Origin: an uncultured Anaerolineaceae bacterium
GTDB lineage: Bacteria > Chloroflexota > Limnocylindria > Limnocylindrales > CSP1-4
Assembly: GCA_964451745.1 (NCBI GenBank)
Contig: CAYVJP010000002.1
Span: forward strand, 1-37,533
Length of the DNA stretch: 37,533 nucleotides
Reading direction: 5' to 3'
Within the stretch, counting starts at the first letter, position 1; every line of letters begins with the position of its first letter. This document shows, in pieces, positions 27,444-37,533 of this stretch. The translations under genes were made by a program, and so were the position numbers. The notes under the pieces were generated by a model. It saw only the letters and a program-made list of their open reading frames with translations, did not search any database and was not told the DNA's origin.

Positions 27444-29237
27444 TCAGTCGGACGTCGGGCGGCTGTCCACGGAGACCCAGCGGGGATCGAGGGTCAGCTG
27501 GATCACCGTGGTCCGCTCTTCGGCGAGCGCCTGGCGGAGCGCGGGTTCGAGGTCGACGTCGTGCTCGACGTGGACACCGCGGGCGCCCAGGGCACGACTG
27601 ACGGCCGCGAAGTCGACCGGACCGAGTTCGGTCGCGATCCCCTCCCCCGTTCCGCGCCGGGCCTGCCACATCGCGATGGTGCCGTACCGCCGGTTGTCGA
27701 AGCAGATCACGATCACGCGGGCATGTTCGCGGACCGAGGTCTCCAGCTCGGCCATGGTCATCGCCAGCCCGCCGTCACCCACCAGCGCCACGACGGGCCG
27801 ATCGCGATGGATCAGCGACGCCGCGATGGCCGCAGGGAGCCCATACCCCATCGCGCCCGACGTCGGACCGATGAAGCTTCCTGGACGCCGGAACCGGAAC
27901 CCGCGACCCGCCCAGCCGGCGAAGTTGCCCGCGTCGGTGGTGACGATCGCGTCGTCGGGCAAGACCTGGCGCAAGGTGGCCACCACACGGCCCGGGTGGA
28001 CCCCAGGCCCGGACCAGGCATCGGCGCCGGCGGTGACGTCGGACGCCGCCTCCCACGCGAGACGGTCGGCAGCATTGTTCGCCTGACGTTCCCCGACGAG
28101 TGCGGCATCGAGGACCGCCTTGCCGACGAGGCGTTCGTTCGCGGCGCGCAGGAACGCCCGGGCGTCGGCCGCGATGACGAAGTCGGGGCGATTCCCGCTG
28201 GTCTGTCCGGGTTCGAGGTCCACGTGAGCCCAGCGGGTCGTGGCGGCAGGCACCGTGTCCTCCCAGGATGTCGGCTCGTTGAGCCGGCAGCCGATCACGA
28301 GCATCGCGTCCGCGGCCGCCAGTCGGTCGCGGACCGTGGGTGCGGCTCCCAGCCCCGCCATCCCGAGATACAACGGATGATCGTTGGAGATGACGTCCGC
28401 ACGCCGCCATGCAGCGATGACCGGCACCTGCAGGAGTTCCGCGAATCGGAGGAGCTCGGTCGAGGTGCGTGCGTGCAGGACCCCGCCACCGGCGAGGATC
28501 ACGGGTCGCCGGGCCGAGGCCAGCAGTTCGATGACCGCCCGGATGTCCTCATCGGGCGCCCGCGCCGGCGCGGAGCGGCCACCCTCCACCTTCGCGTCGC
28601 TGGGTGCCGCCAGGTCGAGGAGGTCCTCGGGGAATGACAGGAGGACCGGCCCCGGACGGCCGCCCAGGGCCTGGCGGATCGCCTCGCCCATCGCAGGTGC
28701 GACCGCGTCGGGCGAATCCGGCTCCACGGCGAACTTCGCCAGCCCACCGATCGTGCCGACCTGGTCGATCTCCTGGAAGGCCTCGTGACCGCGATGCGAT
28801 CGTTCCACCTGGCCGACGATCGCGAACATCGGGGCAGAATCCTGGCGGGCCGTGTGGATCCCGATCGCGAGGTTCGCAGCACCGACGGCCCTGGTGCCGA
28901 GGCAGGCGGCGGGTCGGCCGGTCAGTTGCGCGTGGGCCTCGGCCATGAAGGCCGCGGCCCCCTCGTGACGGGTCGCCACGACGCGGATGCCCGCGTCCCC
29001 GAGGGCATCGAGCAGGCCGAGGAACGATTCGCCGGGCACCGTGAACGCGTAGCGCACGCCGGCCGAGCGCAGGGCGTCGGCGACGAGGCGCCCGATCGTA
29101 CGCGGCGCGGGCTCCGGCTCGTCGGTCGCGGGCACCGGCTCGTCGGTAGCGGCCGGAGCGGGCTCGTCGGCCACGGCCGGCGCCGGCGCCGCCTCATCGG
29201 CGGCAGGCGCCGCCTCCTCGGCTGGATCGACGGTCAT
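27444..29237 (-). CDS. Thiamine-pyrophosphate-dependent enzyme (acetolactate-synthase-like family)
   Basis: ORF 27444..29237. N-terminal Pyr domain GVRYAFTVPGESF, TPP-binding motif LVGDGGLAMTMAELET...N. The first 45 or so residues are an acidic Ala/Pro/Glu/Asp repeat, so the true start could be the internal GTG near VPATDEPEP. Confidence 0.85.
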   Translation of the reverse strand: MTVDPAEEAAPAADEAAPAPAVADEPAPAATDEPVPATDEPEPAPRTIGRLVADALRSAGVRYAFTVPGESFLGLLDALGDAGIRVVATRHEGAAAFMAEAHAQLTGRPAACLGTRAVGAANLAIGIHTARQDSAPMFAIVGQVERSHRGHEAFQEIDQVGTIGGLAKFAVEPDSPDAVAPAMGEAIRQALGGRPGPVLLSFPEDLLDLAAPSDAKVEGGRSAPARAPDEDIRAVIELLASARRPVILAGGGVLHARTSTELLRFAELLQVPVIAAWRRADVISNDHPLYLGMAGLGAAPTVRDRLAAADAMLVIGCRLNEPTSWEDTVPAATTRWAHVDLEPGQTSGNRPDFVIAADARAFLRAANERLVGKAVLDAALVGERQANNAADRLAWEAASDVTAGADAWSGPGVHPGRVVATLRQVLPDDAIVTTDAGNFAGWAGRGFRFRRPGSFIGPTSGAMGYGLPAAIAASLIHRDRPVVALVGDGGLAMTMAELETSVREHARVIVICFDNRRYGTIAMWQARRGTGEGIATELGPVDFAAVSRALGARGVHVEHDVDLEPALRQALAEERTTVIQLTLDPRWVSVDSRPTSD

Positions 29238-29262
29238 CGCGGACGGCCCACGGATCGTGCGA

Positions 29263-29367
29263 TCACACCGAGACCGGATAGGCCACGGCCGAGGCGACCA
29301 GGCCGAAGATGATGAGCACGGTGACGGCGATCATGATCGCCTTGGCGTAGCGCGAGCCAGGCAGCAC
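29263..29367 (-). CDS. Possible 34-aa hydrophobic micro-protein (speculative)
   Basis: Minus strand reads GAGG-N6-GTG CTG CCT GGC TCG CGC TAC GCC AAG GCG ATC ATG ATC GCC GTC ACC GTG CTC ATC ATC TTC GGC CTG GTC GCC TCG GCC GTG GCC TAT CCG GTC TCG GTG TGA = VLPGSRYAKAIMIAVTVLIIFGLVASAVAYPVSV. High GC3. Below the ORF-track size cutoff. Confidence 0.25.
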   Translation of the reverse strand: MLPGSRYAKAIMIAVTVLIIFGLVASAVAYPVSV

Positions 29368-29375
29368 GGGAGACC

Positions 29376-29867
29376 TCAGCGGTAGTTCTGGAACTGCAGC
29401 GGAACGGGCTCGTCGAGCTCGCGAAGCCGGGCGATGACCCGCTGGAGATCATCCTTGTTCTTGCCCGATACGCGCACCGCGTCGCCCTGGATCTGCGACT
29501 TCACCTTGGGAAACTCGTCGCGGATCAGCTTGGTGATGCGCTTGGCGATCTCGTCGCTGAGGCCCCGGCGCAGCTTGATCTGCTGGCGGACCTTGTTGCC
29601 ACCTGCGGGCTCCACCTTGCCCCAGTCGAAGATCTTGAGTGACAGGTTCCGCTTGATCGCCTTGGACTCGATGAGGTCCTTGACGGCCGTCGCTCGGTAC
29701 TCGTCATCGGTGACGAGGACCAGCTCGTCCTTGGCCTGGGTCAGCTCGACCGTCACGCCCTTGAAGTCGAACCGCTGGCCGACCTCGCGACGCACCTGAT
29801 CGAGCGCGTTGCGCAGTTCCTGTTCGTCGAAGTCGCTCACGACGTCGAACGAGACGTCTCCTGCCAT
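29376..29867 (-). CDS. yajQ: YajQ-family (UPF0234) nucleotide / cyclic-di-GMP-binding protein
   Basis: ORF 29376..29867, AAGGAGAG upstream. SFDVVSDFDEQELRNALDQVRREVGQRFDFKG...QFQNYR is the YajQ signature. Confidence 0.9.
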   Translation of the reverse strand: MAGDVSFDVVSDFDEQELRNALDQVRREVGQRFDFKGVTVELTQAKDELVLVTDDEYRATAVKDLIESKAIKRNLSLKIFDWGKVEPAGGNKVRQQIKLRRGLSDEIAKRITKLIRDEFPKVKSQIQGDAVRVSGKNKDDLQRVIARLRELDEPVPLQFQNYR

Positions 29868-29885
29868 CCTGGATCTCTCCTTGTC

Positions 29886-30275
29886 CTACGCCGCGACGGG
29901 CGTCTCGCGCTTGTGCCACCACTCTCGGAAGCGGGCCACGCGCCCATCTGCGGCGATCTCGAGGGTCATGAACCCGGCGATCCGAACCCGTGCTCGGCCC
30001 GGTCGGCGGATGAAGCTGGCGTGCCAGGCGGCGAGGACCGTCGGTCCGACCACCCAGTGGCGCTCGACGGTCATCTCGACCTGGTCCTGCGCCGCCGCTG
30101 CTTCCAGCAAGTATGCGCGAAGGGCGTTGTGTCCGACGATCGGGGGCTCGAACGGGTCCTCGTGGTACTCGGCGTCGTCCGTGAACAGGGCCACCCATCC
30201 GTCGCCATCGAACGACTCCCACGCCTGCCGGTAGCGGTCGAGCAGGTCGCCAGCAGCGGCGTGGTCGATGTCCAT
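29886..30275 (-). CDS. NTF2-like / SnoaL-like domain protein
   Basis: ORF 29886..30275, GGAGGG upstream. LLDRYRQAWESFDGDGWVALFTDDAEYHE is the typical SnoaL_2 N-terminus. Confidence 0.7.
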   Translation of the reverse strand: MDIDHAAAGDLLDRYRQAWESFDGDGWVALFTDDAEYHEDPFEPPIVGHNALRAYLLEAAAAQDQVEMTVERHWVVGPTVLAAWHASFIRRPGRARVRIAGFMTLEIAADGRVARFREWWHKRETPVAA

Positions 30276-30287
30276 CGTCGGTCCCTC

Positions 30288-31862
30288 CTAGGCCCCGGCT
30301 TGGGGTGCGCTCGCAGTCTCGAGGTGCTCGAGCAGTCGATCGCCGATGCGATAGCTGTGGCCCCCACCCATGACCAGCACGACATCACCCGCGGCGACAT
30401 GGGCGGCCAGCCAGTCGGCCGTCGCCTCGACGGACCCCGGTGCCGCAGCCGTCATCTCCGGGCGGACCCGGTGCACGGCGGCGGCCAGCCCGGCGGCAGA
30501 CGCCACGGTCGTGTCCTGGTCGCGTCCGGCCCAGATGTCGGCCACGGCCGCGGCATCCGCGCCCGCGAGCGCATCCGCGAACCCGGCCAGGAGCGCCGCC
30601 GTCCGATGGTACGTCAGCGGCTCGTACACGGCCCACAGACGTCGACCCGGTTCGCGCTGGCGGACCGCGTCGATGGTCTCGCGGATGGCCGTCGGATGGT
30701 GACCGTAGTCGTCATAGACGACGACCCCGGCCGCTTCGCCCTTCCGTTCCAGGCGGCGACCGACGCCTGCGAACCCGGCCAGACCTTCGACGATGCCCGG
30801 GACCGGGACGCCGAGGGCGAGGGCAGCTCCGGCGACGGCGAGGGCGTTCGCGGCGTTGTGCCGACCCGCGGTGCGGAGCGTGACCGTCACGGGACCCGTG
30901 AGCGGGTCCAATCCATGGATCTCGAGCATCGTGCCCGAGGGTTCCGCACGGACGATCCGGCCCAGCACCGGGCGAGCCGGTCCTTCGGGCGTCGTGAAAC
31001 GCTCGGCGATGCCACGCGTGAACCCGGCTCCCGCCGGGGATGCGTCAAGCAACGCGTAGGCGACGATGTGGGTCGCCCGATCCAGGAGCCGCTCGACCAC
31101 CGACGCTGCGCCCCGATCGCCGACATTGGCGACCAGCGTGGAGCCGTCGGGCGTTCGGCTCAGCCATCGCGCGAACGCCGATTCCACGGCCGCGGCGTCC
31201 GCGAAGACGTCGGGGTGGTCCCATTCCGCGCCCGTCAGGACGGCCACGTCGGGTCGGTACACGTCGAAGTTGCCGGCGTACTCGTCCGCCTCCACCACCA
31301 CGACCGGCCCGTGACCCCAGCGGGCCGTCGCCGGAGGGCCACCGGTGACCGCGCTGGGCATCAGGGCCCCGACGAACGCCGATGGGTCCACACCGGCACC
31401 CGCGAGCACCTGGACGAGCCAACCGGACGTCGTGCTCTTTCCGTGCGTCCCGGCGACGGCGACGAGTCGCTTGCCGACCGCGGCATCGGCGACGACCTGC
31501 TGCCACGGCTCCAGGAGCGTTCCCTGCGCGCGCGCCGCCCGCAGCTCTGGATGATCGGGATCCACCGCCGTGAGTGCCTTGGTCACCGCGACGCGGTCCG
31601 GTCGCGGCGCGTCGGTCACGTGGGCGGGGTCGTGCGTCCATGCGATGCGGATCCCGAGGGCCTCGAGGGCAGGCGTGTACGGCGACGGCCCGCCCGCATC
31701 GCATCCGGTCACCTGCGCACCGGCGTGGTGGGCCAGGATCGCCGCGGCGCTCGCTCCCGCCCCTGCCACGCCGATCACGTGGATCCGCTGCCCGGCGGGG
31801 ATCGCCGTGGCTGGTCGTGCCACCGCGAGCCCGGCGCCGACCGAAGCGGCGTCGCGGGTCAC
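30288..31862 (-). CDS. murC: Mur ligase, MurC-like (UDP-N-acetylmuramate--L-alanine ligase)
   Basis: GTG at 31862 chosen (32 nt after the cinA stop); the rest of ORF 30288..32081 upstream is not protein-like. IHVIGVAGAGASA, P-loop AGTHGKSTTSGW, EADEY, GRHNAANALA, DDYGHHPTAI, YEPLTYHRT. Confidence 0.7.
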   Translation of the reverse strand: MTRDAASVGAGLAVARPATAIPAGQRIHVIGVAGAGASAAAILAHHAGAQVTGCDAGGPSPYTPALEALGIRIAWTHDPAHVTDAPRPDRVAVTKALTAVDPDHPELRAARAQGTLLEPWQQVVADAAVGKRLVAVAGTHGKSTTSGWLVQVLAGAGVDPSAFVGALMPSAVTGGPPATARWGHGPVVVVEADEYAGNFDVYRPDVAVLTGAEWDHPDVFADAAAVESAFARWLSRTPDGSTLVANVGDRGAASVVERLLDRATHIVAYALLDASPAGAGFTRGIAERFTTPEGPARPVLGRIVRAEPSGTMLEIHGLDPLTGPVTVTLRTAGRHNAANALAVAGAALALGVPVPGIVEGLAGFAGVGRRLERKGEAAGVVVYDDYGHHPTAIRETIDAVRQREPGRRLWAVYEPLTYHRTAALLAGFADALAGADAAAVADIWAGRDQDTTVASAAGLAAAVHRVRPEMTAAAPGSVEATADWLAAHVAAGDVVLVMGGGHSYRIGDRLLEHLETASAPQAGA

Positions 31863-31893
31863 CGGGCCAAGTGTGTCGGGCGACGGTACGCGA

Positions 31894-32397
31894 TCACGGG
31901 TCGACACCCGACAGGCGCTCCGCGACCAGTGCCAGTGCTGCCGCCGCGCTCGAGCGCTTGTTCCCGGAACGGTCCTCGGACCAGGCGTACTTGCGCACAT
32001 CGTCGCCCGCCCCGTCGGCGACCGCGACGTAGGTGAGGCCGACGGGCTTGGCCGGCGTCCCTCCGCCAGGACCGGCGACACCCGTGATCGCGACCGCGAG
32101 GTCGACGCCGAGTCGGCTCCTCGCTCCTTCGGCCATCGCCACGGCGACCTGCGCGGAGACCGCCCCGTGGGCCGTCAGCGTCTCCTCCGGGACGTCGGCG
32201 AGCGCGGTCTTGACCTCGTTCGCGTACGTGACCAACCCGCCGCGGAAGTAGTCGCTGGACCCGGGGATCTCCGTCAGGAGGTGCGCCACGAGACCCGCGG
32301 TGCACGACTCAGCGGTCGCGATCGTGATCCCGCGCGCCCGGCACGCGGCACCGACGCGCTCCGCGAGGTCGAGCAATTCGTCGTCGGTCGGCGGCAC
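31894..32397 (-). CDS. cinA: CinA-family nicotinamide-nucleotide amidohydrolase domain protein (PncC-like)
   Basis: ORF 31894..32397 (GTG start). TIATAESCTAGLVAHLLTEIPGSSDYFRGGLVTYANEVK and AITGVAGPGGGT are CinA C-terminal domain motifs. Confidence 0.85.
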   Translation of the reverse strand: MPPTDDELLDLAERVGAACRARGITIATAESCTAGLVAHLLTEIPGSSDYFRGGLVTYANEVKTALADVPEETLTAHGAVSAQVAVAMAEGARSRLGVDLAVAITGVAGPGGGTPAKPVGLTYVAVADGAGDDVRKYAWSEDRSGNKRSSAAAALALVAERLSGVDP

Positions 32398-32402
32398 GCT
32401 CG

Positions 32403-33767
32403 TCAGCGGCGTTGCGTCTTGACGGGTGCATCCGGGGGCGCGAACAGCCAGGTCTCGGGCACGCCACTGCGTCCGAGCGCCCCGAGCGACGTCCCGTTGA
32501 GGGTGAACTCGGTGACCCCCGACGAGCCGGTCCGGACTTCCACGGACTCCTTGCCGGTGAACGTGAGCGTCTTGCCGTCGCTGTAGACCTTGCCCGCGGC
32601 CCCGACGTTCTCGGCGATCTTGCCGTCCACCCAGACCTTGATCCAGGCCTTGCCTCCGTCGATGCTGACCACGAGGTTCACGCCCTTGAAGACGACCGAC
32701 ACGTTGCGCGTCAGCGATGCGGTCTTGCCCTCTTCGCTCGAGGCCGTGACCGTGATGGCCCAGCGCCCGGTCGTCAGCTCGAAGGGCGTGCTGAACGCGC
32801 CATCGGCACCCACCGGGACCGTCACCGGGTCCGGGGCCTCGGGCGGGGCCGGCGTCGCGGCGTCCTCGGCCACGGGTTCGGTGGGACCGGTGTAGCGCGC
32901 GCTCACCACGACCGAATCCGCATTCGTCGTGCGGCCCTGGACAGGGATCGCGCCGTTCTCGAACGTCGCCCCCTCGGAGGGCTGGTCGACCGTCAGGGTG
33001 GGCGCTTCGATCACGAGGAACGGAACGGTGATGAGGAGGCTGACCGTCTCTTCCGACTGCTTGCCGGTGTCGGGATCGACCGAGCTCACCTCGAACGGGT
33101 TCTGCCCGCGGCGCAGCTCGACGGTCGCATTCCAGTCGCCGTCCGCGTCCGCGCTGACCGAGTACGGATCCCGTCCGGGCGTGGCGATCGAGACGGTCGC
33201 GCCCGCGGTCGTGGTGCCTCGCATGACGAACTCCGTGGCACCCTCGTCCACCTCGACGACGGCGACGGCCGGGTTCGTCACGGCGATCGTGGGTGGCTTC
33301 GCGAAGCGCAGCAGCTGGACGCCGAGGTACACGGCGAACGCGAGCACCGCGATGCTGAGCAGCGCGAAGACCACAAGACTGGGCGAGAACGTGAGCCCGG
33401 GCCGTGGCGTGACGATCGGTCGCGGGACGGCGATGACCGCCTGGGGCTCGCGGCTCTCACCGCGCTCGCGCCGCCACTGGAGCAGCACCTCGTCCGGGTC
33501 CAGGCCGAGGTACAACGCGTAGTTCCGAAGGAATCCCTTCGTGTAGACCGCACCGGGCAGTTCGCGGTAGTCGCCCCGCTCGAGGGCCGCGAGATAGCGT
33601 GCCCGGATCTTCGTATCGCGCTCGGCGCGATAGAGGTCCACACCTTTGCGCTCGCGGGCGGTCAGGAGGCGCTCGGGAAGGCTGGGCGTGGGTTCGACGG
33701 CAGGACCCCGTGCGGCATCGCCGCGCGCGGCCCCGACGGCTCGTCGGACCTGGTCCCGTGTCGTCAA
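32403..33767 (-). CDS. RodZ-like protein: N-terminal HTH, one TM, Ig-like repeats, C-terminal DUF4115-like domain
   Basis: ORF 32403..33767 (TTG start). LLTARERKGVDLYRAERDTKIRARYLAALERGDYRELPGAVYTKGFLRNYALYLGLD is the RodZ-type HTH. TM LVVFALLSIAVLAFAVYLGV. C-terminus reads AWIKVWVDGK...VEVRTGSSGVTEFTLNG. Confidence 0.75.
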   Translation of the reverse strand: MTTRDQVRRAVGAARGDAARGPAVEPTPSLPERLLTARERKGVDLYRAERDTKIRARYLAALERGDYRELPGAVYTKGFLRNYALYLGLDPDEVLLQWRRERGESREPQAVIAVPRPIVTPRPGLTFSPSLVVFALLSIAVLAFAVYLGVQLLRFAKPPTIAVTNPAVAVVEVDEGATEFVMRGTTTAGATVSIATPGRDPYSVSADADGDWNATVELRRGQNPFEVSSVDPDTGKQSEETVSLLITVPFLVIEAPTLTVDQPSEGATFENGAIPVQGRTTNADSVVVSARYTGPTEPVAEDAATPAPPEAPDPVTVPVGADGAFSTPFELTTGRWAITVTASSEEGKTASLTRNVSVVFKGVNLVVSIDGGKAWIKVWVDGKIAENVGAAGKVYSDGKTLTFTGKESVEVRTGSSGVTEFTLNGTSLGALGRSGVPETWLFAPPDAPVKTQRR

Positions 33768-33896
33768 CTGCTGTGCCCCGTCTGAACGCGCTCGCTTCCG
33801 GTCTCGTCGCCTCGGCGCCGCGCCAGCGTGGCGTCGACCGCTGCGACAGGATACCCCAGCTGGGTCAGGGGGCCCACCGGGACGTTGGTCCGGGCA

Positions 33897-35963
33897 TCAC
33901 TCGCCCGGATCGTCGATGTCGTCCTGCGAGATGAACCAGTTCTCGCGCCCGTAGATCTGGCGGGGCGAGGCGGGGTTGCGCGGGTCCTGCGGGCCGATGA
34001 TGCCGTAGCGCTCGAGTTCGTCCATCACGCGGCTGGCCCGGGCGAACCCGAGCTTGAGCTTGGTCTGGAGCATCGAGGTGCTCGCCCGCTGGGTGCTGGT
34101 CACGAGCTCGGCGGCCGGCACGGTCATCTCGTCCACCCCCAGCTTGCGCAGCCAGGCGAACTGGCCGCCCTCGCCGTTGGCCCCCTCCTCGGCGTCGGTG
34201 AAAGCCAGGATCTCCTCGTCGTAGAAGGTCCGGCCATCGGTCTGGTCGAGCCAGTGCTTGGTGATCGCGCTCACTTCGCGATCGCTCACGAAGACGCCCT
34301 GCATGCGCACCGGCCGCGGCAGGTCGACGGGCTGATAGAGCATGTCGCCGCGTCCGATGAGATCCTCGGCGCCGGGCGCGTCCAGGACGGTCCGCGAGTC
34401 GATCATCGAGGCCATCGCGAACGCGATCCGCGACGGGACGTTGGCCTTGATCAGCCCGGTCACGACATTCACCGAGGGGCGCTGGGTGGCCAGGACGAGG
34501 TGGATCCCCACGGCCCGGGCCTTCTGGGCGATCTTGACGATCGGGTCCTCCACCTTGCGGCCCTCGCGCATGATCAGGTCCGCGAGCTCGTCGATGATCA
34601 GGACGATGTAGGGCATCCGTTCCGCGGCGCCGTCCTCGCCGCCATTGACCGCCTCGGGTCGGCCGTTGAACGCCGCGATGTTGCGCACCCCGTGCGCGGC
34701 CAGGAGCTTGTAGCGCTCCTCCATCTCGCGGACCGCCCAATTGAGCACGGCCTTCGCCTCCCCGGGCTCCACGATGACGTGCTGGAGCAGGTGCGGCAGC
34801 CCGTTGTACGGGGCGAGTTCCACGCGCTTGAGGTCCACGAGCACCATGCGCACCTCGTCGGGCCGGGCTCGCATCAGCAGGCTCGTGATCAGCGCATTCA
34901 CGCACACGCTCTTGCCGGACCCCGTGGCACCGGCGACGAGCAGGTGGGGCATCTTGGCGAGGTCCACGGCATACGCCTTGCCCGACACGTCGCGCCCCAG
35001 GGCGAACGTCAACGGGCTCGTGGCCCCCAGCATCTGGCTCTCGTCCACGAGCGGCCGGAACCCGACCACCTCGCTGACCGAGTTGGGGATCTCGATGCCG
35101 ACGACGTCCTTGCCCGGGATCGGCGCCTCGATCCGGATGGATCGGGCGGCCAGGGCCATGGCCAGGTCGTCGGCGAGCGCCTCGATCCGCGACACCTTGA
35201 CGTGGTGCTCCGGGCGGACCTCGTACTGCGTCACGACCGGCCCGGAGTTGATCTTGGTCACCTTGGCCGGGATCGAGAAGCTCAGGAGCTTCTCTTCGAT
35301 CCGCCGGGCGTTGGCGGCGTGGTCCACCTCGCCGGACACCCGACCCGCGGCACGCGCCTCGAGCAGATCGATGGCGGGCAGGGTCCACTCGATGGCGTTG
35401 AGCGACTCCTGGGCGGTCGGGGTCTCGGTGGCCAGGGCCGTGGCGGTCCGGGCAGCGGATGCCGTCGCCCCGGTCATGGCGCCGCCCGTGGCGAGCGTGG
35501 CCGGCGCGCCGAGCGATCCACCATCGCCAGGCCCCGTCCAGACCGTCTGGCTCATCGGTGACTGGCTGGTCCTCGGCGCCGGATCGTCGAGGATGCTCCG
35601 GCTGGATCGCGCGGGGTCCTGGTCGTCGGCCTGGATGGGGACCGCCACCGGCGCCTTCGCGCCGTTGCCCGCCGTCGCGGTCTTCCCCTTGGCACCCTTC
35701 ATCGCGCCAGCGGCGGACGCGGCTCGTTGCTCCTGCGTCCGACGGACCGAATCGGCGGCGGTGGTGACGACCCAGTGCGCGGTCCCGGTCACGGGGTCCG
35801 TGAGCTGCCGCAGTCGCAGGTTGAACGCGAGCATGATCCCCAGGACGCCGATCGCCACGAAGAACACGAAGGTGCCTGGGCCGGTGCCCATGCCTCCCGC
35901 GGCCGCGGCGACGGCCGCGTCGTCCAGGAACTTGCAACGCGGCCTTGCACGATGGACATTCAA
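33897..35963 (-). CDS. ftsK: DNA translocase FtsK, C-terminal fragment (last TM, linker, motor alpha/beta, gamma domain); separated from its N-terminus by the 146-bp insertion
   Basis: ORF 33897..35963 (TTG at 35963; first ATG at 35891 directly after GGGAGG). Walker A VAGATGSGKS, Walker B LIIDELADL, ATQRPS, gamma domain STSMLQTKLKLGFARASRVMDELERYGIIGP. Confidence 0.85.
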   Translation of the reverse strand: MNVHRARPRCKFLDDAAVAAAAGGMGTGPGTFVFFVAIGVLGIMLAFNLRLRQLTDPVTGTAHWVVTTAADSVRRTQEQRAASAAGAMKGAKGKTATAGNGAKAPVAVPIQADDQDPARSSRSILDDPAPRTSQSPMSQTVWTGPGDGGSLGAPATLATGGAMTGATASAARTATALATETPTAQESLNAIEWTLPAIDLLEARAAGRVSGEVDHAANARRIEEKLLSFSIPAKVTKINSGPVVTQYEVRPEHHVKVSRIEALADDLAMALAARSIRIEAPIPGKDVVGIEIPNSVSEVVGFRPLVDESQMLGATSPLTFALGRDVSGKAYAVDLAKMPHLLVAGATGSGKSVCVNALITSLLMRARPDEVRMVLVDLKRVELAPYNGLPHLLQHVIVEPGEAKAVLNWAVREMEERYKLLAAHGVRNIAAFNGRPEAVNGGEDGAAERMPYIVLIIDELADLIMREGRKVEDPIVKIAQKARAVGIHLVLATQRPSVNVVTGLIKANVPSRIAFAMASMIDSRTVLDAPGAEDLIGRGDMLYQPVDLPRPVRMQGVFVSDREVSAITKHWLDQTDGRTFYDEEILAFTDAEEGANGEGGQFAWLRKLGVDEMTVPAAELVTSTQRASTSMLQTKLKLGFARASRVMDELERYGIIGPQDPRNPASPRQIYGRENWFISQDDIDDPGE
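35855..35886. repeat. Direct repeat copy A (32 nt, perfect), inside ftsK
   Basis: ccacgaagaacacgaaggtgcctgggccggtg, identical to 36001-36032. On the coding strand it encodes TGPGTFVFFV. Confidence 0.95.
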
Positions 35964-36000
35964 AAACGATCATGGGGATCAACTCCAAACAAAGAGTCGT
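35887..36000. other. 114-nt unique insert between the two repeat copies; compositionally foreign at one end
   Basis: 35951-36000 has 21/50 G+C in an otherwise very GC-rich gene. Carries the TGA (35960-35962) that ends the N-terminal ftsK ORF. A third frame reads MIVFECPSCKAALQVP. Confidence 0.8.
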
Positions 36001-36496
36001 CCACGAAGAACACGAAGGTGCCTGGGCCGGTGAGCAGCGGCTGCAGCGTCTCCGACAGGAACCGCCCGATGCGGCCACCGCCGCGTTCGACGTCGAGGAT
36101 GTCAAGGGCCAGGACCTCGAACGCCCCGAGCAGCGCGACGTAGGCGATCCCGAGCCCGATCAGGGTCATCCCCCACCCCGAGCCCGGATGGCGGCCGGGG
36201 CCGGCAGCCACGTACCAGCCCCCGATCAGGAGCAGGAACGGGAGCAGCCAGCGACCGGTCTCGAACCACGGCGCGATCGAGTCGCGCCACCAGTCGGTGA
36301 GCGCGCCTTCGCCGGGGAGGAGCAGTGCGATGAGCGTGATGGCGCCCAGGGCCATCATCAGCGTGCCCACCACCGAGCGGACGACGTCCGGGGTGATCCT
36401 GCCCAGCAACGCATCCGAGCGGGACCGTCGAGGCCGACGCGAGCTCCGTGTCGCGGTGGTTCGCGACGTGGACCGTCCGGTCCTGCGGGTCGCCAC
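35960..36496 (-). CDS. ftsK: DNA translocase FtsK, N-terminal membrane fragment (TM1-TM3 and the start of TM4), terminated inside the insertion
   Basis: ORF 35960..36496 (GTG start 2 nt after the RNase J stop). Arg-rich N-terminus then TM helices. ...GGGRIGRFLSETLQPLLTGPGTFVFFV then runs into DDSLFGVDPHDRF-stop. Confidence 0.8.
   Translation of the reverse strand: MATRRTGRSTSRTTATRSSRRPRRSRSDALLGRITPDVVRSVVGTLMMALGAITLIALLLPGEGALTDWWRDSIAPWFETGRWLLPFLLLIGGWYVAAGPGRHPGSGWGMTLIGLGIAYVALLGAFEVLALDILDVERGGGRIGRFLSETLQPLLTGPGTFVFFVDDSLFGVDPHDRF
36001..36032. repeat. Direct repeat copy B (32 nt, perfect), inside ftsK
   Basis: Identical to 35855-35886, offset 146 nt. Confidence 0.95.
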
Positions 36497-36498
36497 CG

Positions 36499-37533
36499 CT
36501 AGACCTCGACCACGACCGGGAACACCATCGGTCGTCGCTTGGTCTGCTCGTAGAGGTAACGCGACACGCCGTCCTTGATCTGCGACTTGAGGAGGGCGAC
36601 TTCGCTGATGTGGTCGCCGGGCGTATCGATCGCCTGCATGACCCGCTCGACCGCCTCTTCCATGATCGGGTCCTTCTCGTTGAGATGGACGAACCCGCGG
36701 GTCACGATCTCGGGCCGACCCACGACCGCTCCGGTCTGCTTGTCCACCGTGACGACGATCATGAACATGCCGTCGTTCGCGAGCGAGCGTCGGTCGCGCA
36801 GGACGATCTCCCCCACGTCGCCGACCGACAGGCCGTCCACGAACACGTACCCGGCGGTGACGGGAGCCCCGCGGCGCGCCGATCCGTCGGCGAAGAGCTC
36901 GATCGGCGTGCCGTTCTCGATGATGAACACGTTGTCCGGCTGGACCCCCGTCTCGATCGCCAGGCGGCCGTGCTGGACCTGCATCCGGAACTCGCCGTGG
37001 ATGGGGATGAAGTGCCTGGGCTTGGTGAGCCCCAGCATCAGCTTGAGCTCCTCCTGGCTGGCATGCCCGGACACGTGCGCCCGCTTGATGGTGTGGTAAT
37101 AGACGTTCGCGCCCGCCTTGAAGAGGTTATCGATCGTGCGCGACACGTACTCCTCGTTGCCCGGGATCGGGCTCGCGCTGACGATGACCGTATCGCCCGG
37201 TTCGATCTCCACGAATCGATGATCCCGGTTGGCCATGCGCGCGAGGCCGGCCATCGGTTCGCCCTGGGCCCCGGTCGTGGCGATCACGAGCTTCTGATCC
37301 GGGTGATCCTTGATCTTGTCCTTGGGGACGATCCGCGACGGATCGTAGGTGAGGTACCCGAGGTCGGTCGCGATCCGGAAGTTCTGCTCCATGGAGCGCC
37401 CGATGACCGAGACGTTGCGACCCATGTCGGCGGCAGCGTCGAGGACCTGCTGGACGCGCGCGATGTTGCTCGCGAACGTGGCGACGATGACGCGACCATC
37501 GAGCGGTTCCATGATCTCGCGGAAGGCTTCGCC
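36499..37533 (-). CDS. rnj: Ribonuclease J (beta-CASP metallo-beta-lactamase RNase), C-terminal two-thirds; 5' end lies beyond the window
   Basis: ORF 36499..37512 continues in frame to the window edge. ATFASNIARVQQ, VIGRSM, VSGHASQEELKLML, FIPIHGE and the C-terminal domain are typical of RNase J. Confidence 0.9.
   Translation of the reverse strand, partial: GEAFREIMEPLDGRVIVATFASNIARVQQVLDAAADMGRNVSVIGRSMEQNFRIATDLGYLTYDPSRIVPKDKIKDHPDQKLVIATTGAQGEPMAGLARMANRDHRFVEIEPGDTVIVSASPIPGNEEYVSRTIDNLFKAGANVYYHTIKRAHVSGHASQEELKLMLGLTKPRHFIPIHGEFRMQVQHGRLAIETGVQPDNVFIIENGTPIELFADGSARRGAPVTAGYVFVDGLSVGDVGEIVLRDRRSLANDGMFMIVVTVDKQTGAVVGRPEIVTRGFVHLNEKDPIMEEAVERVMQAIDTPGDHISEVALLKSQIKDGVSRYLYEQTKRRPMVFPVVVEV

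Follow-up and report, generated by a model that had tools for sequence, protein, structure and literature searches.

ftsK on a Limnocylindria metagenome contig, interrupted by 114 nt of heterologous DNA between perfect 32-nt direct repeats

The window analysed here, a complete 37.5-kb metagenome contig from an uncultured Limnocylindria-like member of the Chloroflexota, carries on its reverse strand an ftsK gene that is split into two open reading frames. The 32-mer CCACGAAGAACACGAAGGTGCCTGGGCCGGTG occurs exactly twice in it, at 35855-35886 and 36001-36032, with zero mismatches. In the order in which they are met on the coding strand, the main features are as follows.

35960..36496, reverse strand: N-terminal ftsK fragment, 178 aa, ending ...TGPGTFVFFVDDSLFGVDPHDRF with TGA at 35960-35962
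36001..36032, reverse strand: repeat copy 1, first on the coding strand; TGPGTFVFFV, where TM4 starts, is read in frame with the N-terminal ORF
35887..36000, reverse strand: heterologous insert of 114 nt, without counterpart in the orthologues or in L002/L006
35855..35886, reverse strand: repeat copy 2; TGPGTFVFFV is read again, here in frame with the motor (C-terminal) ORF
33897..35963, reverse strand: C-terminal ftsK fragment, with the rest of TM4, the linker and the alpha, motor and gamma domains

The 32-mer pair is the sole perfect short-range direct repeat in the window, and the number of second copies expected by chance is 0 (100 shuffles). The repeat ends at 32 nt; the bordering bases differ between the copies, so no 33-nt match exists. 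The initial annotation of this DNA had described exact 32-bp repeats that both encode TGPGTFVFFV, one in the frame of each ftsK ORF, and this description agrees with our own. So does its account of an offset of 146 nt (2 mod 3), with the upstream ORF ending at the TGA at 35960-35962. Native downstream ftsK runs on directly from repeat copy 2. Deletion of 35887-36032 (146 nt) was recomputed to leave 2454 nt, or 817 aa plus a stop, as had been claimed for a repeat-to-repeat deletion that yields one 817-codon ftsK.

The N-terminal fragment has 165 native residues, which span TM1-3 and reach halfway into TM4, and 13 residues encoded by the insert, and its match to the 4TM domain falls below threshold (18.9 bits vs 23.1). 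The C-terminal fragment comprises 688 aa if read from TTG 35963 and 664 aa if read from ATG 35891, the start chosen by the gene call of the protein collection (P0006). In the 664-aa ORF we found FtsK_alpha (PF17854, 1.6e-31), FtsK_SpoIIIE (PF01580, 9.5e-62) and FtsK_gamma (PF09397, 3.8e-17). The single continuous ORF that would join a 4TM domain to the motor is broken here, at TM4. Both restart codons named in the initial annotation are present, TTG 35963 overlapping the upstream TGA as TTGA (35960-35963). The GGGAGG reported ahead of ATG 35891 is also there, but it makes a poor ribosome-binding site because its spacing of just 1 nt is too close. The nearest GGAG to TTG 35963 is spaced at 19 nt. 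Promoter-like and terminator sites were sought at the insertion and none was found; no Rfam model came near threshold, and the DNA fold (z = -1.9) is not notable.

Relatives of this gene are intact. In eight orthologues (74-95% identity) the sequence ...ETLQPLLTGPGTFVF.VA.GVLG... runs on unbroken, with no insert. Intact orthologues of equal length share 95% identity with the reconstructed 817-aa protein, whose gene lies in a conserved rnj-ftsK-rodZ-like-cinA-mur ligase neighbourhood. Aligned with these orthologues, as proposed when the split was first described, the 817-aa protein is collinear throughout, and the orthologues hold no extra in-frame segment. A second assembly from the same population (L002/L006, run SRR13871838) matches both flanks at 99.1-99.9% identity, with a single 32-mer and no insert. 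Over 7 kb, the window contig departs from L002 by only 40 SNPs and a single in-frame 21-nt indel, with no frameshift besides the one at the insertion; outside the insertion the contig is clean in this comparison and does not look error-ridden. Among the contigs listed that carry the window's exact CinA (10 of 23), only L006 reaches the site. The RodZ-like allele of the window type was seen in three further runs, SRR36351797, SRR22401993 and SRR27422802. Exact look-ups among ~15 billion proteins placed both split products on the window contig alone, and the exact reconstructed protein and the guessed products of contigs cut at the repeat were absent from the protein collection. Because no related sequence has the insertion, we regard it as a private mutation or an assembly fault and not as a genetic system.

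One apparent parallel was set aside. Short N-terminal FtsK fragments on long ENA contigs could be taken for a lineage-wide split, but they break at scattered positions and carry frameshift-type tails. At the one such locus examined (L015) the break lies near TM4 and two ORFs that overlap by 1 nt make up 817 aa together; rnj and cinA are also shortened there, which is the error pattern of long-read indels and not the phenomenon seen here.

Within the insert, a low-GC core and a GC-rich part can be told apart, along with a short direct repeat.

35996..36003, reverse strand: 8-nt direct repeat TGGACGAC, copy 1, straddling the junction of repeat copy 1 and the insert
35927..35995, reverse strand: low-GC core, 69 nt, 48% GC, with a leader-like stretch, GGAG at 35983-35986 and ATG at 35971-35973
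35919..35926, reverse strand: 8-nt direct repeat TGGACGAC, copy 2, at the GC-composition break, 77 nt from copy 1
35887..35923, reverse strand: GC-rich part of the insert, 37 nt, 84% GC, containing the palindrome CCGCGGCCGCGG

The insert had been called compositionally foreign at one end, and we reproduced the figure given (21/50 G+C at 35951-36000). Nowhere else in the contig is GC as low as in this part: all 57-nt segments with a GC content of 46% or less fall within the region of the low-GC core. Its third-frame reading is MIVFECPSCKAALQVP, with GGAG (a Shine-Dalgarno site) 9 nt upstream; the core codons after the ATG read MIVFECPSCKAALQV, and the 16th codon, Pro, finishes at 35926. These 16 zinc-ribbon codons have a GC3 of 0.50 vs 0.90-0.94 in host genes, where every 16-codon segment reaches at least 0.69. 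The parallel drawn earlier between KFLDDAAVAAAAGGMG and the native RFLSETLQPLL did not hold up, being only a 7-nt match at chance level, and we accordingly rejected the idea that the GC-rich part is homologous to the native FL...TGPG loop.

With their left flanks included, the two TGGACGAC copies agree at 11 of 12 bases (TTCCTGGACGAC vs TTCGTGGACGAC, compared by eye on the sequence), and our own rough estimate of the chance of such a pair is 0.01-0.03. The 37-nt GC-rich part and one 32-mer add up to 69 nt, which is in frame if the inner 77 nt are removed; this hypothetical remainder would add DDAAVAAAAGGMG and a second TGPGTFVFFV. Both the TGGACGAC pair and the in-frame remainder may be coincidental if the 114 nt are one contiguous foreign fragment, in which case the insert would read as a zinc knuckle with a tail rich in Arg and Gly.

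In an effort to place the insert, its coding content was searched as peptide and as DNA. A search with MIVFECPSCK returned three soil contigs (L017-L019) with homologous gene starts, none of them the donor, and the suggestion in the initial annotation that the insert carries the start of a CxxC zinc-ribbon gene is thereby borne out. The first 11 insert codons differ from these CxxC...CxxC plus DUF1559 genes at third positions only. On this likeness we propose that at least 69 nt of the insert derive from the 5' end of a Planctomycetota-type DUF1559 zinc-ribbon gene. The fragment itself is truncated and has only the first CxxC of the two, scoring at best 16-17 bits where the Pfam cut-offs are 27-30 (Zn_ribbon_4/MJ0042-like), despite its homology to the starts of real genes.

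A donor was sought without success in the window, 185,579 species-representative genomes, JGI metagenomes, IMG/VR, phages, plasmids or 5.8 billion protein clusters, so that the database search for 35887-36000 proposed earlier returned no copy in any collection covered. A degenerate pattern for MIVFECPSCKAALQVP had 0 matches in genome contigs and 0 in metagenome contigs, and pattern scans of viral contigs gave 0 matches to the insert. Searches with blastn against phages and plasmids produced noise alone, confined to the GC-rich half, and the insert is therefore not phiX or vector. A word search for the insert peptide in the 5.8 billion protein clusters gave no candidate, and HMMER against 1.84 billion representatives recovered generic multi-knuckle zinc-ribbon proteins only. 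One match to CPSCKAALQVP was rejected as a donor, since it is a single chance match inside an Atopobium membrane gene.

We put at about one half the chance that an ordinary 817-codon ftsK is present here as a private, broken copy. The leading explanation, which we judge about evenly balanced between true and false, is that foreign DNA was captured, and the target duplicated, in one illegitimate event. A single illegitimate DNA transaction at ftsK codons 156-165 would have left two copies of a 32-nt target segment, with 114 nt of heterologous DNA set between them. The resulting frameshift would truncate FtsK inside TM4 and leave a membrane stub of 178 aa, with the motor ORF translatable only from weak internal starts. 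Judged on sequence, the allele is most likely null or hypomorphic and not a designed split, and slippage between the 32-mers could precisely restore the gene. The geometry also bears on how the structure arose. At least two junctions return to one locus, 32 nt upstream, for which a locus-tethered process would be a natural source; such a structure would not readily come from random ligation, from chimeric reads that arose independently or from a k-mer graph of clean reads.

Several observations touch on whether such an event took place in a cell. In its favour, the TGGACGAC microhomology joins junction 1 to the internal GC break and the remainder is in frame. Against it, ftsK is highly conserved and single-copy, and selection should keep such alleles rare, while artefacts land anywhere; moreover, the donor is apparently of another phylum, and its DNA certainly shared the tube, though not with equal certainty the cell.

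An artefact of assembly or library preparation is nearly as likely, at a little short of an even chance. Here the population's ftsK would be intact and the repeat-insert-repeat structure would come from a chimeric assembly path or a library chimera. Contig ends overlapping by k-1 = 32 may have been left unmerged and the gap filled with mis-recruited reads; local reassembly, polishing or multiple-displacement amplification chimeras are other possible routes. Consistent with this, the split is confined to the window contig among the ~15 billion proteins and all DNA collections searched, and ftsK is uninterrupted in the one further assembly to span the site, which derives from the same population (99% identity). 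The insert resembles DNA of a co-occurring soil phylum, and the lesion falls in a strongly conserved gene, as expected for a position blind to selection. The contig is also a mosaic consensus of a population with a diversity of ~0.5%, and 0 of 13 public contigs of that population are identical to it. As expected of an assembly chimera, the insert is absent from the independent L002/L006 assembly and an outlier in both GC and GC3; its absence there and its foreign composition are also compatible with a private real mutation.

The length of the repeat can be read both ways. A setting of k = 33 gives a 32-nt (k-1) overlap in assemblers of the Velvet, ABySS, SOAPdenovo and minia type, but common metagenome assemblers end at k of 55 or more, or use odd k with overlaps of k, and 32 is unnatural for them. 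A k-mer graph that exits ftsK at the end of the 32-mer and re-enters at its start would need reads with both junctions, and two independent chimeric reads linking the same loci within 32 nt and 114 nt would be very improbable. No assembly damage was seen elsewhere over the 8.5 kb compared.

Of the four explanations first offered for the split, an artefact and a genuine disruption remain, and the other two, a two-polypeptide FtsK and a reversible ON/OFF switch, are argued against by our data. In these accounts the stub would work with a TM4-anchored motor, or the gene would exist in heritable states reset through the 32-nt repeats; we consider this highly improbable. The TTGA stop/start overlap at 35960-35963, the placement of ATG 35891 in frame with TM4 and the motor, and the intact alpha, motor and gamma domains of the motor ORF would all suit a functional split, and recA-independent deletion works well on perfect 32-nt repeats that lie 146 nt apart. 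Nonetheless, both accounts are disfavoured because this contig alone carries the split and the signals for restarting translation are weak (GGGAGG 1 nt from ATG 35891, GGAG 19 nt from TTG 35963, no promoter-like site). Every relative has a single ORF and no other record has this split. Half of TM4 is lost from the N-terminal fragment, and the insert is no dedicated element but a piece of some unrelated gene. The recurrence of both states expected of a phase-variable locus was not seen, the split products lying on one contig alone among ~15 billion proteins.

Equally improbable, in our estimate, is the fuller scenario in which a soil Limnocylindria cell captured ~70-114 nt of Planctomycetota-type DNA in vivo and the allele has persisted through working fragments or by flipping back through slippage. 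If it were true, a persisting allele with slippage would amount to a stochastic ON/OFF state of a gene for cell division and chromosome segregation.

Least probable of all is an insertion made by a dedicated enzyme, be it a MITE with target duplication, off-target Cas1-Cas2 activity or the remnant of an integrase element with att-core repeats: a target duplication does flank the insert, and 32 nt lies within the typical range of CRISPR repeat lengths, which is compatible with Cas1-Cas2 without being specific to it, but searches of the window, L001/L002 and the genome, metagenome, viral, phage and plasmid collections turned up no further copy of the insert, which lacks terminal inverted repeats, is bounded by a duplication far exceeding the 2-14 nt of transposases, is ~3x the length of a spacer (about 30-40 nt) with no repeat array in the 37.5-kb window, and is too short to hold a recombinase gene, its content being the 5' end of a gene.

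Returning to the single illegitimate insertion, if the junctions are real, this locus would be a natural example, in an uncultured soil bacterium, of a tiny cross-phylum DNA fragment fixed by illegitimate recombination, and would indicate that a truncated FtsK can be carried by a population. If they are not, the case is one of annotation caution, in which a MAG is scored as being without intact ftsK owing to a 146-nt chimeric patch. Either way, no new genetic system is revealed.

Comparison with known systems places these readings side by side. The reconstructed protein has the 4TM N-domain, FtsK_alpha, FtsK_SpoIIIE motor and FtsK_gamma of an FtsK/SpoIIIE translocase, which here is cut inside TM4 into ORFs of 178 aa and 664/688 aa. 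Transposons, MITEs and Cas1-Cas2 insertions share the direct target duplication that bounds the insert; they differ from this locus, where a single copy of 114 nt is found with no inverted ends, no array and a 32-nt duplication. As in the sigK skin and the nifD, fdxN and hupL heterocyst elements, direct repeats flank the interruption of a gene and the ORF is restored by precise deletion, but those elements span kilobases, carry their own recombinase and are conserved in their lineages, whereas the 114 nt here encode nothing complete, hold only a truncated zinc-ribbon start, lie on one contig and are absent in relatives. Metagenome misassemblies and chimeras resemble the locus in that it is a singleton with foreign DNA of a co-occurring phylum and a duplication length that fits a k = 33 graph; unlike them, it shows no visible k-mer common to ftsK and the insert, and the remaining contig is clean.

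Illegitimate capture of very short foreign fragments is known mostly from laboratory selections in Acinetobacter. Ku/LigD-type NHEJ, in which filled 5' overhangs are ligated to a captured fragment, would give a duplication-insert-duplication pattern, and this expected pattern is the one seen here; it would call for a stagger of 32 nt. In SPDIR, bacteria integrate heterologous single strands, foreign DNA included, at microhomologies, leaving microindels of 3 to about 100 bp, and in wild-type cells the process is extremely rare, below about 1e-12 (bioRxiv 10.1101/2023.11.22.568220). The 32-nt target duplication sets our locus apart, duplications being unmentioned in that report (bioRxiv 10.1101/2023.11.22.568220), as does its occurrence on one metagenome contig only. 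The likeness lies in a short heterologous patch within a chromosomal gene that calls for no dedicated enzyme and may stem from beyond the genome, in the 8-nt microhomology-like repeat at one junction, and in the size of the 69-nt core, which falls within the 3 to about 100 bp range, the full insert being 114 nt.

Deletion of positions 35887–36032 from ftsK, which is read on the minus strand, yields 2454 nt encoding 817 amino acids and a stop codon. The 146 nt so removed comprise one copy of the 32-mer CCACGAAGAACACGAAGGTGCCTGGGCCGGTG and a 114-nt insert (35887–36000). The 32-mer occurs exactly twice, at 35855–35886 and 36001–36032 (chance expectation, none), and is the sole perfect short-range direct repeat of the window. 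Different bases adjoin each copy, which limits the repeat to exactly 32 nt. Just one further short-range direct repeat exists in the window, 34 nt at 2656–2689 and 2958–2991 (91% identical, spacing 302 nt), and is probably an internal repeat within a protein. Two ORFs cross the copies of the 32-mer:

35960–36496, minus strand: N-terminal ftsK ORF, 178 aa, crossing the first 32-mer and ending ...TGPGTFVFFVDDSLFGVDPHDRF-TGA
33897–35963, minus strand: C-terminal ftsK ORF, 688 aa from TTG or 664 aa from ATG 35891, crossing the second 32-mer into the FtsK linker and motor

The N-terminal stub lacks half of TM4. On recheck, every coordinate and sequence statement in the initial annotation on the exact repeats, the split ORFs and the 817-codon reconstruction was correct. 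The GGGAGG it placed ahead of ATG 35891 is present, with a spacing of only 1 nt that makes it a weak ribosome-binding site; a GGAG lies 19 nt from the TTG start of the motor ORF.

The reconstructed protein matches thousands of FtsK proteins, the nearest of 817 and 816 aa and 95% identical, and its named matches point to Candidatus Limnocylindrales (Chloroflexota). Eight orthologues (74–95% identical) and P0121, an intact 817-aa FtsK from a Logan contig of run SRR13871838, run unbroken and without an extra segment through ...GGGRIGRFL.E.L.PLLTGPG.FV...A...LG.M.AFN, which bears out the reconstruction; aligned with them, the two window ORFs share TGPGTFVFFV as an overlap. The orthologue DNA on the GCA_021733565.1 contig (L001) also spans the site, with a clean 146-nt gap in the alignment. 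The host gene is an ordinary FtsK, except that in the window it lacks one defining trait, a continuous single ORF.

The 664-aa ORF is a public gene call (P0006) on an NCBI contig of 37,533 nt, so the window amounts to an entire contig of a metagenome-assembled genome. P0121 is the one further member of the 90% cluster of P0006. Its contig (L002/L006) is 99.9% identical to the window over 36001–37533 and 99.1% over 28918–35886. These two alignments overlap by exactly the 32-mer, and the SRR13871838 assembly therefore carries the 32-mer once and lacks the insert. A 7-kb comparison of the two sequences shows 40 substitutions, a single in-frame indel of 21 nt and no further frameshift, which indicates that the window is good-quality sequence of a closely related strain that differs disruptively at one point only. 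The 21 nt (seven codons) of L006 8770–8790 are missing from the window at 29125/29126, in ORF 27444–29237 (minus strand); because CCGGCTCGTCGGT occurs twice in the stretch at this site, the indel looks like a repeat-mediated strain polymorphism. Downstream of ftsK, the start of a RodZ-like gene (32403–33767, minus strand) is ambiguous: the longest ORF runs 454 aa from TTG, and most public gene calls start at a GTG 42 codons later (412 aa).

The minus-strand 5' part of the insert is compositionally foreign. All of the window's 57-nt stretches with GC of at most 46% fall there, at 35941–35963. GC3 of the 16 codons MIVFECPSCKAALQVP is 0.50, against 0.90–0.94 in host genes, and none of 2120 sliding 16-codon host windows has a GC3 below 0.69. 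Pfam returned zinc-ribbon matches to the insert peptide, all sub-threshold. In JGI metagenomes, a scan with MIVFECPSCK hit three soil contigs that carry a real gene, and this is the closest relative of the insert's gene fragment:

L017, 1000–1300: soil metagenome Ga0182040
L018, 179–1282: soil metagenome Ga0310916
L019, 74–374: soil metagenome Ga0182034

In the 358-aa product, an N-terminal zinc ribbon of the form CxxC...CxxC (MIVFECPSCKAKMRAAEEYAGQTVVCPDC...) is followed by a TM segment and then by a DUF1559 domain (PF07596, 9.4e-27), an architecture typical of Planctomycetota. A second DUF1559-like ORF adjoins this gene in the soil contigs. Within the first 33 nt, insert and soil gene disagree at five positions, every one a third codon position, and a GGAG lies 9 nt upstream of the zinc-ribbon ATG. 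The earlier reading of the third frame as the start of a CxxC zinc-ribbon gene thus holds up: low GC and GC3, together with differences confined to third positions, indicate that this part of the insert, at least, is a genuine 5' end of such a gene from a lower-GC organism. No exact donor was found in any collection searched. The insert has no second copy in the window or L001/L002, no significant match among phages or plasmids and no Rfam match; no inverted ends, promoter or terminator were found in it.

The 8-mer TGGACGAC occurs twice on the minus strand, 77 nt apart:

36003–35996, minus strand: copy 1, straddling the junction of the first 32-mer and the insert
35926–35919, minus strand: copy 2, at the composition jump from 48% to 84% GC

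Extended by its left flank, each copy agrees with the other at 11 of 12 bases, and if one 8-mer plus the 69-nt core is taken out, an insertion of 69 nt remains in frame, ...TGPGTFVFFV-DDAAVAAAAGGMG-TGPGTFVFFV-AIG.... By our own rough estimate, about 0.01–0.03 8-mer pairs with one copy on the junction are expected by chance, which suggests serial template switches or two insertions nested one in the other, each flanked by a duplication. Alternatively, all 114 nt could be one unbroken piece of foreign DNA, encoding a zinc knuckle and then an Arg/Gly-rich tail. In the ftsK frame the GC-rich part has a high GC3, but CGN/GGN codons in the other frame produce this automatically, and it is therefore not evidence of host origin. 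Two weak, imperfect inverted similarities between the insert and native ftsK on both sides of it (35904–35922/36067–36085, 19 nt, 84%; 35970–35981/35834–35845, 12 nt, 92%) are near chance level and could be template-switch footprints or chance matches in GC-rich DNA.

In a 15-billion-protein collection, the 178-aa and 664-aa split products occur on this contig only, and neither the exact reconstructed protein nor the products predicted for contigs broken at the repeat are present. The population itself is common. The window's exact RodZ-like, CinA, SnoaL-like and YajQ proteins are present in Logan assemblies and NCBI (CinA on 23 contigs), and 13 population contigs were retrieved from about a dozen runs (SRR13871838/9, SRR27422800/01/02/09, SRR24114281/2, SRR36351797, SRR22401993, SRR29445362, DRR784958) at 98.7–99.9% nucleotide identity to the window (27829–37533). 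These contigs are short, and only L006 crosses the insertion site. None of those retrieved (L003–L014) is identical to the window, which is thus one haplotype or a mosaic of a diverse population. The window ends (37533) inside the RNase J gene and the sister-strain contig L006 just 507 nt beyond; two independent assemblies thus stop within one gene, which suggests that the stretch there varies between strains or is repeated.

An N-terminal-domain search returned many short FtsK N-fragments on long ENA contigs, with scattered break points and frameshift-type tails. In a related contig (L015 4001–6456; ENA ERZ25039504 contig_32491, 873,747 nt), the one case with its break near TM4, a simple frameshift leaves ftsK called as 178 + 639 aa with a 1-nt overlap, breaking just after TGPGTFV, and RNase J (rnj, 409 aa) and CinA (94 aa) are both shortened. 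Shortened neighbouring genes are the usual signature of long-read indel errors, and we rejected L015 and the scattered fragments as the same split FtsK, since they are probably such errors in long-read assemblies and not biology. There is no lineage-wide split FtsK.

We consider it an even bet that the insertion is a real private allele. Any route would require at least two junctions, leaving ftsK at the end of the 32-mer and re-entering 32 nt upstream. This geometry would arise directly from a process tethered to the locus: a staggered break that is filled in and captures filler DNA, a template switch at the replication fork, or a heterologous single strand annealing at microhomologies (SPDIR). 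Foreign DNA can serve in SPDIR, which produces microindels of 3 to about 100 bp (bioRxiv 10.1101/2023.11.22.568220). An assembly or library artefact is a serious contender, somewhat short of even: the lesion, a singleton, falls within a gene that is strongly conserved, its insert resembles DNA of another phylum of the same habitat, it is missing from the only other assembly crossing the site, and 32 nt is k-1 of a k = 33 graph. Nonetheless, random ligation, two independent chimeric reads or a clean-read k-mer graph would, we infer, arrive at this geometry only via improbable coincidences. The two-polypeptide FtsK or ON/OFF state entertained in the initial annotation is very improbable, given a split confined to this contig, weak ribosome-binding sites, no promoter found and a halved TM4. 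Least credible is a dedicated mobile element or CRISPR-type integration: the insert is single-copy, without inverted ends or a repeat array, its length is triple that of a spacer, and transposases make duplications far shorter than this one.

The lesion resembles an illegitimate insertion with flanking duplication, of the SPDIR or filler-DNA kind, and would be a candidate for that class. It represents no novel type of system: the best case is a new instance, from nature, of a mutational class already known, and the worst a chimeric patch within a metagenome-assembled genome.
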